Shown here piece by piece: positions 4,196 to 51,856 of a stretch of DNA of 64,000 nt. The notes beneath the pieces were generated by a model that saw only the letters and a program-made list of their open reading frames with translations, was not told where the DNA came from and did no database searches. Position 1 is the first letter of the stretch. The number at the start of each line of letters is the position of its first letter. The translations under genes and the position numbers were made by a program. The DNA is from Oleispira sp. (GTDB lineage: Bacteria > Pseudomonadota > Gammaproteobacteria > Pseudomonadales > Oceanobacteraceae), in assembly GCA_047616865.1 (NCBI GenBank), contig JBLGBO010000009.1, positions 72,076 to 136,075 on the forward strand. Reading direction: 5' to 3'.

Positions 4196-4250
4196 AAAAA
4201 AGCCCGCACTTTATTCCTAATCTAACAAAGAATAAAATGCGGGCTTTTTC
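4196..4250. terminator. bidirectional intrinsic terminator between pilE (+) and ispH (-)
   Basis: Arms aaaaagcccgcac ... atgcgggcttttt flank a long loop and are followed by a T-run. The genes on either side converge. Confidence 0.5.
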
Positions 4251-5694: not shown

Positions 5695-6242
5695 TATTTT
5701 TCACCTTCTTTGTTCAGGTTTTTTTCTGCTATAGCGGCAGCCGCTTTTTCTCTACGGGCTTCAAATACCACGTCTAAACCTAGCATAACAGCACCAATGG
5801 TTATGGCACTATCAGCTATATTAAAGGCAGGGAAATATGAACCTGACCAATGCACAGAAATAAAATCAATCACGTGGCCATATACCAAGCGATCAAATAA
5901 ATTGCCCAATGCACCACCTAAAATAAGCGTTAGCGCAACCGCTAACCATTTATTTTCACGCGGTAGCTTATACAACCAGGCAATTAGCATAGTACTAACA
6001 CCGGCCGCTATAGCAGTAAAAAACCAACGCTGCCAGCCATCTTCACCCGCTAAAAAACTGAAGGCCGCACCAGGGTTATAAAGCAAGGTCAAATCAAATA
6101 CCGGTAGAATCGGTACAGGCTGACCATAGCTTAAAAAGTTTTCTGCTAGTTGCTTAGTAATCAAATCGAACGCAATCACGAAGACCGATAACCACAACCA
6201 AATTAGGGCTGAGGGTTCCCCAGCCTTACGTTCTTGGTTCAT
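5694..6242 (-). CDS. lspA: lipoprotein signal peptidase II
   Basis: Multi-TM protein with LspA motifs (FNIADSAI). Start moved to the internal Met (MNQERK...) so it does not overlap the ileS stop. Confidence 0.9.
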   Translation of the reverse strand: MNQERKAGEPSALIWLWLSVFVIAFDLITKQLAENFLSYGQPVPILPVFDLTLLYNPGAAFSFLAGEDGWQRWFFTAIAAGVSTMLIAWLYKLPRENKWLAVALTLILGGALGNLFDRLVYGHVIDFISVHWSGSYFPAFNIADSAITIGAVMLGLDVVFEARREKAAAAIAEKNLNKEGEK

Positions 6243-20286: not shown

Positions 20287-21444
20287 CTATTTGCGCTTTT
20301 TAGGTAAAATATCCATGTATTTACAAATAATGCCGATCATAATTTCATCTGCACCACCACCGATAGACGCCAAGCGATTATCACGATAAAAACGTGAAAC
20401 CACGTTATCCCACATAAAGCCCATACCACCCCAATACTGAATACAGCTATCGGCCACTTCACGCACCAGACGACCTGATTTCAATTTCGCCATGGAGGCT
20501 AAGCGCGTCATATCTTCTTTATTCAAATACCCTTCACATGCTTGATAAACCATGCAACGCAGTGCTTCAATTTCTGTTTGCAGTTCGGCCATACGGAAAT
20601 GAATTACTTGATTATTAATCAGCGGCTGGCCAAACGTTTCACGCTCACGACAATAGGCAATCGTGGTATCAACACAAATTTCCATCGATTTTAATGACAT
20701 GGCTGCAACGTACATACGTTCTTCTTGGAACTGCATCATTTGCATCATGAAGCCAGCCCCTTCACTGCCAATTAGGTTTTTCTGTGGCACTCGCACATTG
20801 TCGAAAAATACCTGCGCGGTATCAGAAGAGCGCATACCGAGTTTGTCGAGTTTATCCGAAAGACTTACGCCCGCTAAATTCATCGGCACAACAATTAATG
20901 ATTTATTTTTATGCGCCTTATCGTCAGAGGTATTGGCTAATAAACAAATAAAATCGGCTTGAGTGGAGTTAGTAATCCACATTTTTGTACCATTGATGAT
21001 GTAATCATCGCCATCTTTTACCGCCGTCGTTTTAATCGCAGCAACATCAGATCCTGCACCTGGCTCACTCACGCCAATACATGCCACCATGTCACCGGCA
21101 ACCGCAGGTGCTAAAAAGGTTTCTTTAATATAGTCACTGCCAAAGCGAGCCAGCGCAGGCGTCGCCATACAGGTCTGCACGCCAATCGCCATGGGAACAC
21201 CACCACAGATAATGCCGCCAAATTCTTCCGCTGCCGCCATCTCATAAGAAAAGTCTAACCCCATTCCACCAGCAGACTCAGGCTTAGAAATACCCAACAA
21301 CCCCAAGTCGCCCATTTTCTTGAACAGTTCTTTTGCCGGGAAAATACCGTCTTTTTCCCACTGTTCTATATGAGGATTAATTTCGTTTTCTACGAAGTTA
21401 CGGACGGTTCTTTTAATTTCTTTATGTTCTTGAGTCAGAATCAT
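20287..21444 (-). CDS. acyl-CoA dehydrogenase (citronellyl-CoA/isovaleryl-CoA dehydrogenase type)
   Basis: 385 aa with ACAD-family motifs and a C-terminal YRDNRLASIGGGADEIM. Confidence 0.9.
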   Translation of the reverse strand: MILTQEHKEIKRTVRNFVENEINPHIEQWEKDGIFPAKELFKKMGDLGLLGISKPESAGGMGLDFSYEMAAAEEFGGIICGGVPMAIGVQTCMATPALARFGSDYIKETFLAPAVAGDMVACIGVSEPGAGSDVAAIKTTAVKDGDDYIINGTKMWITNSTQADFICLLANTSDDKAHKNKSLIVVPMNLAGVSLSDKLDKLGMRSSDTAQVFFDNVRVPQKNLIGSEGAGFMMQMMQFQEERMYVAAMSLKSMEICVDTTIAYCRERETFGQPLINNQVIHFRMAELQTEIEALRCMVYQACEGYLNKEDMTRLASMAKLKSGRLVREVADSCIQYWGGMGFMWDNVVSRFYRDNRLASIGGGADEIMIGIICKYMDILPKKRK

Positions 21445-21535
21445 TTTATTATTCCTATTCTTTTAATCTTTAATTTTATAATTTCGTACGCGTTGCTTTA
21501 ATTCTACAACGCCGTAATTCAAATTTCTGGCACAC

Positions 21536-21649
21536 TCTGCATGAGGTAGCTCGTTCTTCGCCACGCCGTGAATACGCCGCTTCGCTCTCCCTGTAGGCTC
21601 TCCGCAGCTCCCTGCTGCAGAAGGGCTTCAAACGAGCCACCTCATGCAT
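21536..21649. repeat. MITE-like palindromic repeat, family 1 (core gccgtgaatacgccgcttcgctctccctgtaggctc)
   Basis: Outer inverted repeat gcatgaggtagctcgtt / aacgagccacctcatgc encloses a core shared with copies at 21778-21871 and 50217-50323. Confidence 0.55.
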
Positions 21650-21777
21650 CGCCTCTAATATCGTTTTTTATTCAAAGCCTTCAATAATCTAAATTTGACG
21701 GCTTGTTGGTATTTTTATATTTTAAAATTAAATTCTGAATTTAAAATTTTATTGCTGTCAGCTTTCGCGTATCGGTA

Positions 21778-21871
21778 TTGGGTATGTCGTTTAAGGCCGT
21801 TAGATCCCAGGGATGGGATCTCCGAGCCTACATGGACGTATTCACGGCGTGCCGCCTAACGACATACCCAA
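21778..21871. repeat. MITE-like palindromic repeat, family 1 (inverted orientation)
   Basis: Outer inverted repeat ttgggtatgtcgtt / aacgacatacccaa. The reverse-complement core is ggcggcacgccgtgaatacg...gtaggctc, plus the palindrome gatcccagggatgggatc. Confidence 0.55.
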
Positions 21872-21931
21872 TATCGATAGCAAGCGAAAGCGATTAAAAA
21901 ACCAAAACCGTCGAACGCTCTTTATAGAATA

Positions 21932-23548
21932 TTAAAACCGCGATACACCAAAACTATTCCCCTGAAGACAGCGATGCTTCTCTTCATCACACATGTCTAA
22001 TAGCATCACCAACAACTTGCGCGTATCGCGTGGATCGATTAAACCGTCATCCCAGATTCGAGCCGTACCAAACAACGCAGTAGAACCTGCTTCTAACTTC
22101 GCCGCTGTCATCTGCTCAATCTGATCAAGCATCTTCTCGTCTGGTACCTGACCCATTTTCAGCTGTTTCTCTTCCGTCACAATGCGTAAAACTTTACCCG
22201 CCTGCGCACCACCCATCACCGCCGTCTTGCTATTTGGCCAAGCAAAAATAAATCTTGGATCCAAACCACGACCACACATTGCATAATTACCCGCACCGTA
22301 AGAACCACCAATCACAATTGAAATCTTAGGCACGCGCGCATTGGCAACCGACTGCAGCATTTTAGAACCGTGCTTAATGATGCCGCTCTTCTCAGACTCA
22401 GTACCCACCATAAAACCCGTGGTATTATGCAAAAACAAAAGAGACACCTGGTTCTGATCACACAGCTGAATAAACTGCGCCGCTTTATTTGCGCCCTTCG
22501 CCGTAATAGGACCATTGTTACCAATAATACCCACCGCATGACCAGCAACTTTAATAAATCCGCACACCGTTTGAATATCAAAATCTGGCTTAAAATCTTG
22601 AAACTCAGAGCCATCCGCAATGCGCGCAACCACTTCACGCACATCGTAAGGTTTCTTAGAATCACAAGGGACAACCCCTAATAATTCATCAGCACTATAA
22701 AGCGGTTCCTCATAAACCTTTTCTGTACGCGGAGATACTTGATCATTCCACGGCAGGCCAGCCATCACTTCACGAGCAATGCGCACACCATCGGCATCAT
22801 CTTCCGCTAAATAATCCGCCGTACCCGCTTCATAAGCATGTAGCTCAGCGCCGCCTAATTCTTCATCGGTCGCGATCTCGCCCGTCGCTGCTTTTAACAA
22901 AGGCGGCCCGGCTAAAAACATCTTTGTTTTATTACGCACCGCAATAATGAAATCAGAAAGACCCGGTTGATAAGCACCACCCGCCGTGGCATTACCATGC
23001 ACCACCGTAATCTGTGGAATACCCGCCGCGGATAAACGCGCTTGATTGGCAAACGCCTGCGCACCCGGAACAAAAACATCCGTCGCGTACTGCAAGTTTG
23101 CTCCACCCGATTCTGCCAAGGTCACAATCGGCAATTTATTTGCGCGCGCGATTTCTTGAATGCGTAAGGTTTTATCCAAGCCAGCAGGAGAAATAGTACC
23201 GCCTTTAATAGCGCTATTATTCACCTGAATCATGCAACGGCTACCCGCCACATAACCGATGCCAGCAATAATGCCACCCCCTGCGCTGCTGCCGTCTTTA
23301 TCATCATGCATCTTCAAACCGGCAAGGGAACACAACTCTAAAAAGTTAGAGCCGCCATCCAATAAAAGATTTAAACGTTCACGAGGTAATAGTTTTCCGC
23401 GCTGACGAAATTTTTCTTTTGCTTCTTCAGCTTTCACTAATACTTTTTCTTCAACCGCACGAAACTCATCAATCGCCAGCTGCATTGCGGCACAATTATT
23501 GGCAAAGTCTTCGCTAAGGGTTTCGATTTCTGACGTTAAAATAGCCAT
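21932..23548 (-). CDS. acyl-CoA carboxylase beta subunit (carboxyltransferase; geranyl-CoA/methylcrotonyl-CoA carboxylase type)
   Basis: 538-aa carboxyltransferase-domain protein in the AtuC/LiuB position. Confidence 0.9.
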   Translation of the reverse strand: MAILTSEIETLSEDFANNCAAMQLAIDEFRAVEEKVLVKAEEAKEKFRQRGKLLPRERLNLLLDGGSNFLELCSLAGLKMHDDKDGSSAGGGIIAGIGYVAGSRCMIQVNNSAIKGGTISPAGLDKTLRIQEIARANKLPIVTLAESGGANLQYATDVFVPGAQAFANQARLSAAGIPQITVVHGNATAGGAYQPGLSDFIIAVRNKTKMFLAGPPLLKAATGEIATDEELGGAELHAYEAGTADYLAEDDADGVRIAREVMAGLPWNDQVSPRTEKVYEEPLYSADELLGVVPCDSKKPYDVREVVARIADGSEFQDFKPDFDIQTVCGFIKVAGHAVGIIGNNGPITAKGANKAAQFIQLCDQNQVSLLFLHNTTGFMVGTESEKSGIIKHGSKMLQSVANARVPKISIVIGGSYGAGNYAMCGRGLDPRFIFAWPNSKTAVMGGAQAGKVLRIVTEEKQLKMGQVPDEKMLDQIEQMTAAKLEAGSTALFGTARIWDDGLIDPRDTRKLLVMLLDMCDEEKHRCLQGNSFGVSRF

Positions 23549-42419: not shown

Positions 42420-43295
42420 TCAATCGCAATGATGAATACTTTCATTCAATACTCGATGAAATAAAGAATTCAATAAATCTATCGAATCTCCCTTGTCGCC
42501 ATATTTCCCAGCATAGCTTTCAAGCCTTAATAACTCAGTTTCAATAAAGGTATTAATGGGTTTTATAGGCAACGACAAAGCTTTTTCTGTCTCTGCTCGT
42601 TTACGGCGTAATAATTCGTTTATGTCTTCTAGCAAGCTATCGTTATCAAGTACACGATCCAACAAAACCGAAAACTGAATCGGCGCAGGTGTTTTATAAC
42701 GTTCTAACCAGCGTATCGATAGCAAAGCCCTTAGCACATAGAGATATTTTTTATAGGGCACTTTATCTGCTTTAAGATAACCTCGGTAATTGGTCTTGGC
42801 CATGCTGTGATAATGATGAATACCTTTTTCAGCGCTGTATATTTCTGGCAATAATGCCTTAGCACTCAAAGCAAAGTTTCCTTCGTTCGTATAAACAATC
42901 GGTGAATTGATCCACTCTACAAATGACGGATTGGAATTGCTGTATAGCTTCAAGGCTTTACGCAGATCCCAGCCATTAATATCGATCTCATCTACGATGG
43001 GATATTCGATAACATCTCGTTTAGCTTCTAAATCTATGTCTATATACCAATCTTTTTTGTGTATATAGATAAAACGTACATCATAATCACTCGTCGCTGA
43101 GGCAAAACCCCAAGCACGACTCCCTGACTCAATCGCTAGCAATACTTTAACGCCGTGCTCGATTTCTGCCGCGGCGATACGGTCTAATATTTCGTCGTGT
43201 ATGTTTTTTTCTATGTGCTCTATGGCATTTATTTCCATATCCAGTTTCATTTTATTGACTTTCCTTAATATATTTTTTAACCAGGCTAATCTCAT
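42420..43295 (-). CDS. Pol-beta-superfamily nucleotidyltransferase, RlaP-like (RNA-ligase-associated NTase family)
   Basis: GSRAWGFASATSDYDVRFIY is a hG[GS]x9-13DhD minimal NTase active site. 291 aa. Last gene of the rtcBA-linked module. Confidence 0.65.
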   Translation of the reverse strand: MRLAWLKNILRKVNKMKLDMEINAIEHIEKNIHDEILDRIAAAEIEHGVKVLLAIESGSRAWGFASATSDYDVRFIYIHKKDWYIDIDLEAKRDVIEYPIVDEIDINGWDLRKALKLYSNSNPSFVEWINSPIVYTNEGNFALSAKALLPEIYSAEKGIHHYHSMAKTNYRGYLKADKVPYKKYLYVLRALLSIRWLERYKTPAPIQFSVLLDRVLDNDSLLEDINELLRRKRAETEKALSLPIKPINTFIETELLRLESYAGKYGDKGDSIDLLNSLFHRVLNESIHHCD

Positions 43296-44826: not shown

Positions 44827-44828
44827 AT

Positions 44829-44901
44829 GACTATCGCAGGAATCGAACCTGCACCGATCGACTTTTGTCGATTGCTCTAACTCACTGAGCTACATAGTCG
44901 C
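44829..44901 (-). ncRNA. non-canonical tRNA-like element (acceptor stem, D-arm and T-arm are good; anticodon loop has 6 nt). Candidate YrlA/Y-RNA-like RNA or tRNA pseudogene.
   Basis: Reverse complement GACTATG-TA-GCTC-AGTGAGTTA-GAGC-A-ATCGA-CAAAAG-TCGAT-CGGT-GCAGG-TTCGATT-CCTGC-GATAGTC-A. Stems pair, but the anticodon loop is 6 nt, so it is not a functional decoder. Confidence 0.5.
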
Positions 44902-49244: not shown

Positions 49245-50102
<858 letters not shown>

Positions 50103-50216: not shown

Positions 50217-50323
50217 CTAGAAGTTGAATTTTAGGCGGCACGCTGTGAATACGCCGCTTCGCTCTCCCTGTAAGCTCAACGATTCCATCCATGGAATCGG
50301 ATGGCCTTAAAAATTAACTTCTA
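50217..50323. repeat. MITE-like palindromic repeat, family 1 copy
   Basis: Outer inverted repeat ctagaagttgaatttt / aaaaattaacttctag. Core ggcggcacgctgtgaatacgccgcttcgctctccctgtaagctc plus the palindrome gattccatccatggaatc. Confidence 0.55.
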
Positions 50324-50698
50324 GCACTCACAGCTTACTACCTCCAGATTGCAATCGCGTACCAATTAAAAGCAATAAAGCTGGGGTAAAAAAACACTCA
50401 CGCATCAATGTAAGCCGTCAGACTTGAAAATAATTACTTACCGTAAAATCTGAATTAATTTCTATGGTGATGCATTAGGTGATTCGTTTCTGGCGGCGTC
50501 ATCTGGCATGGATGCCAGATACGAGCCTAAAGGGACAAAACTGCAGGAGCATGTTTTGCACTGCGAAGCTGCCCGAAGGGTAAAATACACGGATGTATTT
50601 TATACCTATTTACGGCGTCCCCTGAAATGAATTACCTAATACCGCGCATGCCAAACTGTAAATTCACGGCGTTTAAAAACCTACACTGTGCTTGAGCT

Positions 50699-51856
50699 TT
50701 AAAGCACCACTAAATTATCAATATGTATTAACTCAGCTTCGCCAACATAACCTAACAGCTCTTGCTGCTGGGCGCTGGTCTTACCGCACAATTTTTGCGC
50801 TTCGCTATGATCGAAATTAATCAACCCCTTAGCAATGATTCGGCCCTTGCCATCTAAGCAAGCAACCACCTCACCGCGGCGGAAAATACCTTTCACGGCT
50901 TTAACGCCCACAGGTAATAAACTATTACCGCCCTTCTTCAATGCCTTCACTGCACCGTCATCAAGAATAAGCTCGCCAGAATGCTGCAAGTGTCCAGCAA
51001 TCCACTGCTTGCGTGCAACTTCTGGTTCAGTATCCGCAACCAGAAGCGTACCAATTTTTTCTTTCGCCCGTAAACGAATCAATACATTTTCAATGCGACC
51101 GCCCACAATAACCGTATCCGCACCCGAGCGTGCAGCAACCGCCGCCGCTTTTACTTTCGTAATCATACCGCCACGACCTAAAGCACCACCATCACCAGCC
51201 ATCGCAGCAAACGATGGGTCAGACGCTCGGCCTTCGGTAATCAACTCAGCATCAGCATTATGGCGTGGATCTTTAGTAAATAAACCATCTTGATCAGTCA
51301 GAATAACCAGCGAATCGGCTTCGACTAAATTAGCAACTAACGCACCTAAGGTATCGTTATCACCAAAGCGAATTTCGTCAGTCACCACCGTATCATTTTC
51401 ATTCACGATCGGCACAACACCCATTTCAATTAACGTGCGCAACGTCGAGCGCGCATTAAGATAGCGTTGGCGATTGGATAAATCAGCGTGAGTTAATAAG
51501 ATTTGCGCGGTGTGTTTATTATGCTGCTGAAAAGCGGTTTCGTAAGCTTGTACTAAACCCATTTGACCGACCGCTGCCGCGGCTTGTAACTGATGAACTT
51601 CACTAGGGCGTGAAGTCCAACCTAAACGCGTCATTCCCTCGGCAACAGAGCCAGAAGAAACTAAAACGACTTCAATGCCTTGCGACATCAAATCAGCGAT
51701 TTGATCAACCCAAGCTTGAATACCTGGACGATTAAGGCCTTTGCCGTCATTCGTAAGCAGAGCGCTACCAATTTTAATAACCCAACGTTGACCGCTAACA
51801 AGGCGGTCTCTGGCGGTGTTTAAATCAACAACTGGTTTCATTGCTCTCATGCTCAC
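50699..51856 (-). CDS. proB: glutamate 5-kinase
   Basis: [12 protein letters not shown]... kinase domain plus a C-terminal PUA domain. 385 aa. The start may be the internal MKPVV. Confidence 0.9.

Follow-up and report, generated by a model that had tools for sequence, protein, structure and literature searches.

Four small palindromic elements lie in two intergenic gaps of a 64-kb stretch of DNA from Oleispira sp. (contig JBLGBO010000009.1, positions 72,076 to 136,075; the whole stretch is hereafter the window), and they belong to a group of repeats resembling MITEs (MITE, miniature inverted-repeat transposable element) whose members are united by one structured module and not by common termini. 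On our best reading, this group is a superfamily, widespread in Gammaproteobacteria, of palindromic MITE-like repeats that includes YPAL/RU-2 of Yersinia and that has low-copy members in Oleispira. We further propose, tentatively and stopping short of calling it probable, that the strand with GGA loops is transcribed and would then form a dual CsrA/RsmA-binding module mounted on a long double-stranded stem. This full model is held no more firmly because its transcription, binding, and phenotype are matters that we infer.

Positions are given in window coordinates throughout, and the strand given for a copy is the one carrying the GGA loops. Copies A and B occupy the 487-bp gap between a carboxyltransferase gene (21932–23548, minus strand) and an acyl-CoA/citronellyl-CoA dehydrogenase gene (20287–21444, minus strand), and copies C and D are flanked by kdsA (49245–50084) and proB (50699–51856). 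Scores are those of a covariance model, R1. The elements and their parts are as follows.

21538–21648, minus strand: copy A (49.5 bits, E 3e-10)
21538–21555 / 21631–21648: outer stem of A, 18 bp with one A.C pair (G.U on the other strand)
21563–21600, minus strand: core of A, the 38-nt variant with an 11-nt loop insert
21604–21618, minus strand: inner hairpin (P2) of A, minus-strand apex CAGGGAGC
21761–21891, plus strand: copy B (62.1 bits, E 2e-13)
21761–21791 / 21858–21891: outer stem of B, 22 nt at 95% and, with its extension, 31/34 nt
21824–21850, plus strand: 27-nt canonical core of B, reading GAGCCUACAUGGACGUAUUCACGGCGU and including UACAUGGACGUA
21803–21820, plus strand: P2 of B, GAUCCC-AGGGA-UGGGAUC, apex CAGGGAUG
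50217–50324, minus strand: copy C, in the proB-kdsA gap (49.1 bits)
50217–50235 / 50305–50324: outer stem of C, 19/20 nt with a 1-nt indel
50240–50277, minus strand: core of C, 38-nt variant
50281–50298, minus strand: P2 of C, minus-strand apex CAUGGAUG
50474–50640, plus strand: copy D, a diverged long variant in the same gap as C (23 bits, E 0.0017)
50474–50490 / 50624–50640: outer stem of D
50501–50520, plus strand: P2 of D, apex CAUGGAUG

An earlier note on this DNA had placed three elements where we find A, B, and C, with A and B oppositely oriented in the 487-bp gap, and had named the carboxyltransferase, acyl-CoA dehydrogenase, and kdsA genes beside them; our results agree, with proB added. 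Its count of three grows to four with D, which was found by the covariance model. The perfect, copy-specific inverted repeats of 14 to 17 bp that it described are roughly right for A and C, where we measure 18 bp and 19/20 nt, and fall well short of the 31/34 nt seen in B. The shared core followed by an internal palindrome is likewise present, as A, B, and C have in common GGCGGCACGCYGTGAATACG (allowing up to 3 mismatches, the window has three matches, with 0 expected), then CCNTGTARGCTC, the short palindrome that forms the internal hairpin, and GGCCTTAAA. All four copies follow one plan, in which a long copy-specific outer stem surrounds a conserved block (27 nt long, or 38 nt in A and C) and an inner hairpin whose loop is conserved and whose stem varies. 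The core of A reads ACGCCGTGAATACG[CCGCTTCGCTC]TCCCTGTAGGCTC on the plus strand and GAGCCUACAGGGA..CGUAUUCACGGCGU on the minus strand. Copy D carries a 64-nt insertion in its mini-hairpin loop, which adds CAGGAG, AAGGGU, and the hairpin UACACGGAUGUA (50582–50601); its orthologue in Oleispira genome L001 is canonical (70.8 bits) and aligns with it.

Folding of each copy, a check that had been suggested earlier, revealed energies far under those of shuffled controls (z −3.3 to −9.2). The better fold is on the GGA strand in all four window copies, including A (minus strand, −61.8 versus −50.5 kcal/mol), B (plus strand, −71.1 versus −66.3), and D (−70.2 versus −59.5). The folded strand is the complement of the one on which the earlier note wrote the core.

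The three-way junction formed by this strand is strongly backed by covariation. The junction is closed by its outer stem P1, which is lineage- or copy-specific and has a median length of 28 bp; one branch, which is conserved, is a mini-hairpin that reads GCC-UAC-[A N GGA Y]-GUA-UUCAC-GGC on the GGA strand, and the other is P2, whose stem is free to vary around a conserved CA-N-GGA-U-G apex. When 40 diverse instances were aligned and the pairs of the junction counted, 91.7% of the cells were paired versus 65% in shuffles, and changes on both sides of a pair numbered 290 cells versus 76, a value reached by none of 500 shuffles. Sliding the partner by 1 to 3 columns lowers pairing to 31–44%. Position 5 of the 27-mer (Y) covaries with position 23 (R), with C-G in 119 instances, T-A in 17, and mismatches in 3. 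The orthologues of C (L001, L003, L005) have compensatory P2 stems (GATTCCA/TGGAATC, GATCAC/GTGATC, GATTGCA/TGCAATC) between constant flanks, and in the insertion sequence (IS) ISXa1, described below, the mini-hairpin helices are replaced compensatorily (GCG/CGC, GUC/GAC, CUC/GAG) around a retained AGGGAC loop. Even independently of CsrA, these results define a three-way-junction motif that covaries strongly, has more than 160 instances, and is tied to YPAL and ISXa1; curated RNA families cover it only through a Yersinia-only model.

P2 is hypervariable even among close relatives. In four units (B at 21803–21820, its L004 counterpart, and the D-site units of L003 and L005), the cores are identical, the arms are ~90% identical, and the P2 stems are unrelated, which suggests concerted palindrome turnover or module swapping. 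Perfect copy-specific arms would be kept through selection for pairing, probably helped by palindrome self-correction, an account that would fit both these arms and the very rapid, concerted way in which the inner stem turns over.

The folded strand is also marked by its wobble pairs. Transition mismatches in P1 were counted with one element per arm family (77 non-redundant families), and the pairs compatible with G.U numbered 73 on the GGA strand and 19 on the core strand (p=1e-8). All gene contexts show this bias, which is strongest (18:2) where the neighboring genes transcribe the GGA strand and weakest (17:10) where they transcribe the opposite one. Selection acts on the structure formed by the complement of the core as first described.

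In Gammaproteobacteria, CsrA/RsmA is a master regulator that controls carbon metabolism, motility, biofilm, and virulence at the post-transcriptional level. The CsrA consensus obtained by systematic evolution of ligands by exponential enrichment (SELEX) is RUACARGGAUGU, in which ACA and GGA are invariant and GGA lies in a hairpin loop, and the structure-based RsmE consensus is (A/U)CANGGANG(U/A) (PMC4347634, PMC6849547). The conserved hairpin of the present module, UACA(N)GGA(Y)GUA, fits 10 to 11 of the 12 SELEX positions. Both hairpin apexes on the GGA strand read CA-N-GGA-N-G, and the two variable positions of the 27-mer hairpin are the two N of the structural consensus. A position that had been left free by the search pattern reads TCCN in 126 of 139 instances, and of 77 P2 apexes, 75 have TCC on the core strand, hence GGA on its complement, and none has GGA on the core strand. 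The distance from GGA to GGA is 22 to 24 nt in 71 of 75 cases; for dual-site CsrA targets, Mercante in 2009 reportedly found spacings of 10 to 63 nt to be permitted, with an optimum near 18. The module therefore offers what a CsrA-type target has in sequence, namely GGA in hairpin loops that fit the consensus and two sites within the reach of one dimer.

Long variants have more such motifs. Copy D and locus L134 (3692–3810) share a homologous insertion of ~64 nt with two to three extra GGA motifs that are conserved between them, giving four to five GGA motifs within ~130 nt; in D, GGA occurs four times on the plus strand versus once on the minus strand. This long variant, found in two related taxa at different loci, resembles a small sponge of the Csr/Rsm type.

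Were the GGA strand transcribed, the two loops, 22 to 24 nt apart, would be taken by one CsrA/RsmA dimer, and the element would be a portable CsrA-binding module, either titrating CsrA as a decoy or bringing it in cis to the adjacent mRNA. The long double-stranded P1 would add stability or an RNase III-type processing element. Copies A and C would lie in the GGA orientation within transcripts running into atuD and kdsA, B would be in the nonbinding orientation in the carboxyltransferase mRNA, and B and D would need transcription from the spacers, with the units as such spreading as MITEs. A wider version, in which YPAL, dozens of unnamed MITE families, and at least one IS (ISXa1) disperse a near-optimal dual site as a mobile pan-gammaproteobacterial CsrA-binding cassette, is possible but doubtful. 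Transposition would then rewire or buffer the Csr/Rsm regulon, and the Oleispira module pairs, including the variant with 5 GGA, might be the missing Csr-type sponge RNAs. In the literature searched, we found neither YPAL nor MITEs linked to CsrA, and CsrA, MITE, and GGA appeared together only in the Rfam 12 database paper. Two MITE reviews (PMC3184786, PMC10969869) each mention CsrA zero times.

The distribution of the module extends well beyond the window. An exact 20-mer core scan over one genome per species yielded only the orthologues of B (L004) and C (L001, L003, L005) in Oleispira, along with one match that we judged to be chance. A pattern search admitting both core variants, run on metagenomes and a viral collection, recovered at least 120 loci in metagenomes of soil, sediment, freshwater, and sea, together with five viral-collection contigs, four of them Yersinia-like; at E<1e-3, the covariance model gave 163 hits. 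The architecture is the same in every instance, with a lineage-specific near-perfect outer stem abutting the 27-mer ACGCCGTRAATACRTCCNTGTAGGCTC, which is followed by a hairpin with a freely varying stem and the loop (A/G)TCC(C/A)T, a few bases, and the second arm. The MITE-like dispersed palindromic family that had been supposed is therefore real, and its core is not confined to three sites. Because every instance shares the plan, the organization first noticed here, a conserved core with variable termini, proves to be a property of the whole superfamily.

A name could be given to ten hosts, and all are Gammaproteobacteria: Oleispira, Marinobacter, Alcanivorax, Rheinheimera (with three loci), Aeromonadaceae, Xanthomonadales, an unclassified gammaproteobacterial metagenome-assembled genome, and one host put in this class by best protein hits only. 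The module is also carried by Yersinia and other Enterobacterales. Gammaproteobacteria generally have csrA; the gene was not found in the fetched DNA, as expected for so little sequence. A blastn search with copy B against 5,426 Escherichia coli genomes gave no match, and a consensus search of plasmids returned mostly GC-rich noise save plasmid pDCA and its Xanthobacter twin. Rfam reported no family at threshold in 20 metagenome loci and only a tRNA gene (44828–44899, minus strand) in the window.

The connection to Yersinia is direct. The Yersinia pestis RU-2/YPAL sequence holds the module verbatim, as gtaaag-CGUCCGCGCCAAGGAUGGCGCGGCUC-GAGCCUACAUGGAUGUAUUUACGGCGU-ctttac (PMC2759123, Table 1b), and R1, which was built without Yersinia sequences, gives RU-2 61 bits. 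Both Yersinia locus L007 and the published RU-2 carry the 27-mer and a hairpin with the apex CCAUCCNUGG / CCANGGAUGG. In a permissive Rfam scan, B weakly matches the Yersinia sRNA family Ysr224 (RF02770; 21.1 bits, E 0.027), below the gathering score of 70, and A and C have no match to it. Ysr224 is known to be multi-copy (PMC9029176, PMC12112432), and its consensus finds elements of ~165 bp on Yersinia and enterobacterial plasmids that are flanked by duplicated terminator-like hairpins. The target duplications of these Yersinia-type elements comprise 15 bp in L007 and a duplicated 19-bp hairpin in L008.

Whole units of the family move. The D-site elements of L003 (7632–7760) and L005 (653–808) have arms ~90% identical to those of B in the window and in L004, so a unit of ~135 bp including its arms sits at two different loci in different Oleispira genomes, with an inner hairpin that differs in all four. 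The C-proB site itself holds B-type arms in L003 and L005 and D-type arms in the window (50474–50640) and L001 (6864–6975). Copy A is absent from L004, and its presence or absence among Oleispira genomes is a further sign of unit mobility, as are relatives in which the atuC-atuD gap measures only ~50 bp. The L004 site without A is not a clean excision and has neither arm, and it is therefore uninformative on whether the core inserted into a pre-existing hairpin. By inspection only, we noticed no direct repeats beside A to D. As with MITEs in general, the elements are noncoding, under ~300 bp, multi-copy, and mobile, but the termini of A, B, C, and D differ and are not shared among members and an autonomous IS. 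In other genomes, there are multi-copy families with terminal inverted repeats of their own, tandem arrays, and copies behind tRNA genes.

Several loci of this kind are worth recording. L118 (4721–5334) is a tandem array of three same-strand units with a period of ~177 nt and a divergent copy before the array, and copies in L100 (849–1185) lie directly downstream of consecutive tRNA genes. A fifth Oleispira locus (L040 4158–4243, L044 7360–7445) has the 38-nt core variant with yet another arm pair; its contig also has a citronellol/citronellal dehydrogenase-like gene whose protein cluster includes Oleispira antarctica RB-8. At L085 (~2595–2681), an 11-nt tandem duplication, TGCAGCATCCC, lies within the inner hairpin, and the terminal repeats of that family are TAACATCTCAATAAGTCCGGGC.

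Adjacent copies show a marked geometry. About 24 pairs, including A/B and C/D, are divergent versus 2 that are convergent, and in divergent pairs, the GGA strands face away from a spacer of 70 to 300 nt and the partners have unrelated arms. The same geometry is found in ISXa1 (L138, 48–1621) on the Ancylobacter novellus plasmid pDCA (NZ_KU922118.1), which encodes an ISAs1-family transposase, ends in perfect terminal repeats of 17 bp, shows a target duplication of 8 bp (GGTTGGGG), and adjoins a haloalkane dehalogenase gene. One full module lies inside each end of ISXa1, subterminally, with the GGA strands outward as in the chromosomal pairs. A relative at 87% (L145) likewise carries one module inside each end, and the ISXa1 transposase is 100% identical in a Marinobacterium ramblicola record. 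The window pairs differ from ISXa1 in having no transposase gene, no 17-bp terminal repeats, and no visible 8-bp duplication.

These data bear most heavily on the main rival of our proposal, according to which the elements are purely selfish MITEs, their center is a recognition structure for the mobilizing machinery (folded single-stranded DNA or a duplex bound by a transposase or host factor), and the likeness to CsrA sites is coincidental. The position of the module in ISXa1 and L145, the excess of divergent pairs, an orientation that is random relative to genes, and the existence of families with terminal inverted repeats and target duplications would all be expected if this were so, and the strand bias could stem from one folded DNA strand. 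However, the module is absent from ISAs1 relatives at 76% or less transposase identity and so is not an essential end structure of that family. A general tie to ISAs1-family elements was tried and given up, as six plasmid elements and five closer relatives are without the module. By tblastn, there is no transposase near the other ~125 loci, and the 1.5-kb interval between two copies in L109 encodes, by eye, an HtpX-like protease and no transposase. ISXa1 is therefore a carrier and not the general source of the family, as distant ISAs1-family elements are without the module and no transposase lies near the other loci. Under transposase recognition, the center would usually vary and the termini be kept, which is the reverse of what is seen, and the SELEX match (11 of 12 positions) together with a second CANGGAUG apex is unlikely by chance (we estimate ~1e-5 per motif tested). 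The wobble bias, moreover, is stronger where host genes transcribe the GGA strand. On balance, we regard the selfish reading as rather unlikely.

The spacers between paired copies, and two fragments of the core near them, were also inspected.

21649–21760: A/B spacer, AT-rich (31% GC over the slightly wider interval 21636–21785)
50325–50473: C/D spacer
21509–21520, minus strand: core fragment ACGCCGTAATTC adjoining A, conserved in L004, which is without A
50663–50672, plus strand: core fragment TTCACGGCGT downstream of D (5 window matches, 0.3 expected)

The fragment adjoining A may be the remnant of an older copy. A lone TTTACGGCGT at 42600–42609 matches the 3′ end of the core and may be a chance occurrence.

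The divergent geometry sets both GGA strands of a pair downstream of the spacer, as it would if each member were an independent CsrB/RsmZ-type sponge small RNA (sRNA) gene transcribed outward and D, with 5 GGA-type motifs, were the Csr-type sRNA of Oleispira. Such genes would account for a strand bias that does not depend on the orientation of host genes and for the four to five GGA motifs within ~130 nt of D and L134. A weak sigma-70-like site, TTGACG-17-TATTTT (21695–21723, plus strand), points into B, and TGTAAG, a possible GacA/UvrY-type half-site that L001 also conserves, lies at 50409–50414, 60 nt upstream of D. Yet the promoter-like sites, the one before B included (2 found, 1.1 expected), are not above chance, the C/D spacer has no full GacA palindrome, and terminators are absent. 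The pair spacers have no shared motif, are not conserved, and are not AT-rich outside Oleispira; many copies are solitary and near gene 3′ ends; and there is no sequence or Rfam match to CsrB/RsmY/RsmZ-type families. We consider that the elements are unlikely to be sRNA genes of this sort.

The gene context in turn bears on the proposal of the earlier note that the elements are generic RNA hairpins that have no specific protein partner and that terminate, attenuate, or stabilize the upstream mRNA, thereby splitting the atu operon. The folds are very stable, B begins only 41 nt past the carboxyltransferase stop codon (the gene ends at 21932), and in the larger data set, the nearest gene neighbors are 3′ ends, at a median of 46 nt. 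As relayed in PMC2229807, De Gregorio 2006 found that YPAL-positive transcripts accumulate to higher levels, and a role of the hairpins in mRNA stability, as proposed for YPAL in the same source, is possible by analogy. The gap is also enlarged, at 487 bp versus only ~50 bp between atuC and atuD in Thalassolituus and other relatives, one of which carries two elements in the atuD-hydratase gap instead. The ~90 nt before the acyl-CoA dehydrogenase start (window 21445–21530, L004 5880–5954) are almost identical in the two genomes, and the remaining gap differs. The ~90 nt are probably a promoter/operator and, as such, would supply atuD with an expression signal of its own. A split of the atu operon into two expression units by the elements is plausible, given that the gap has expanded from ~50 to 487 bp and that L004 shares the conserved stretch upstream of atuD.

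The attenuator or intrinsic terminator role has to be abandoned. There are 0 terminator-like sites in either gap, and of the 77 outer stems, 3 are followed by T-rich tails on one strand and none on the opposite one; with no U-tract after the stem, the elements are not intrinsic terminators. Generic hairpins would also leave unexplained why the 27-nt block and the loops are kept from Yersinia to Oleispira and Xanthomonadales while the stems are free, as well as the strand-specific wobble bias. We therefore judge this account improbable.

A number of observations weigh against the dual CsrA/RsmA-binding model that we favor. The predicted binding of the GGA strand is drawn from sequence only, and the conserved GAGCC, UUCAC, and GGCGU outside the loops are unexplained by CsrA. 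Because a G.T wobble is tolerated in folded single-stranded DNA, the strand bias is no proof of RNA. Orientation relative to genes is near random (same/opposite 60/47 for the upstream gene and 48/65 for the downstream gene), and about half of the copies, including B, give the neighboring mRNA the UCC strand, which is also the strand of the Ysr224 RNA seen in Yersinia. The spacers have no promoter-like site above chance, and the elements lack terminators. Finally, the module occurs on an alphaproteobacterial plasmid, inside ISXa1, and the host taxonomy covers only ~10 of ~125 loci.

To our knowledge, the known antagonists of CsrA/RsmA are a few dedicated sRNAs. If the binding model is true, the pool of CsrA ligands in many bacteria, including Yersinia with its 60 to 100 YPAL copies, is much larger and more evolvable, and MITE insertion is a ready route for placing genes under Csr control or for buffering that control. 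The purpose of YPAL-type repeats, a long-standing question, would also be opened to direct testing.

Two other structures occur in the window. A 22-nt inverted repeat, 95% complementary and unrelated to this family, encloses 265 nt (5717–5738 / 6004–6025), and a 20-nt hairpin, AAAAAGCCCGCACTTTATTC / GAATAAAATGCGGGCTTTTT, lies between A and T runs at 4197–4249 and has the look of a bidirectional terminator. Likenesses of the elements to three other systems were tried and dropped. A short resemblance to ERIC (GGCGACAAGCGAGTGAATCC versus GGCGGCACGCCGTGAATACG) is not matched by any covariance-model hit on the E. coli ERIC copy; ends of the GTTRRRY/RYYYAAC kind, as in integron attC sites, occur in the wrong order, and A does not conserve them; and a likeness of GTGAATACGT-CCC to the 1369F primer region of 16S rRNA has nothing further in support.

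Among known systems, REP/REPIN sequences, which RAYT transposases mobilize, resemble the present family in having a GTAG tetranucleotide beside a hairpin (here TGTAGGCUC and P2) and in forming frequent inverted doublets. However, the stems of REP sequences are conserved in any one genome, whereas in the present family P2 varies more than any other part, and its stem changes from copy to copy; the arms of doublet partners are unrelated, and the wobble bias is on the strand without GTAG. With the hairpin the least conserved part and the bias on the non-GTAG strand, the elements are not REP-like. Correia/NEMIS and ERIC/RU-1 MITEs are likewise small intergenic palindromes that fold into long RNA hairpins, and they affect mRNA processing or stability, NEMIS through RNase III (PMC2229807). 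They differ in having conserved termini and TA target sites, whereas the present family has a conserved center and variable termini. With CsrB/CsrC/RsmX/Y/Z and the SELEX ligands, the elements share loop-borne GGA, a SELEX-like hairpin, dimer-spaced sites, and, in the long variants, four to five GGA. In contrast to these sponges, the standard unit has two sites only, placed inside a long perfect stem, is dispersed and mobile, and has no recognizable dedicated promoter or terminator.

The closest likeness is to YPAL, a MITE of 167 to 168 bp with target duplications of 3 to 26 bp at dyad symmetries and a possible effect on mRNA stability (PMC2229807). The central ~65 nt are the same module, and both kinds of element are intergenic, palindromic, and often just downstream of genes. 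The arms in the window are unrelated to the YPAL arms and ends (AGGTTATTGACAAA...TTTGTCAGCAGTCT), the window elements are 108 to 167 bp long, and there are four in 64 kb with unique arms, versus 60 to 100 near-identical YPAL copies in Y. pestis. Because only the central module is common and the arms, length, and copy number differ, the window elements are relatives of YPAL and are not YPAL itself.

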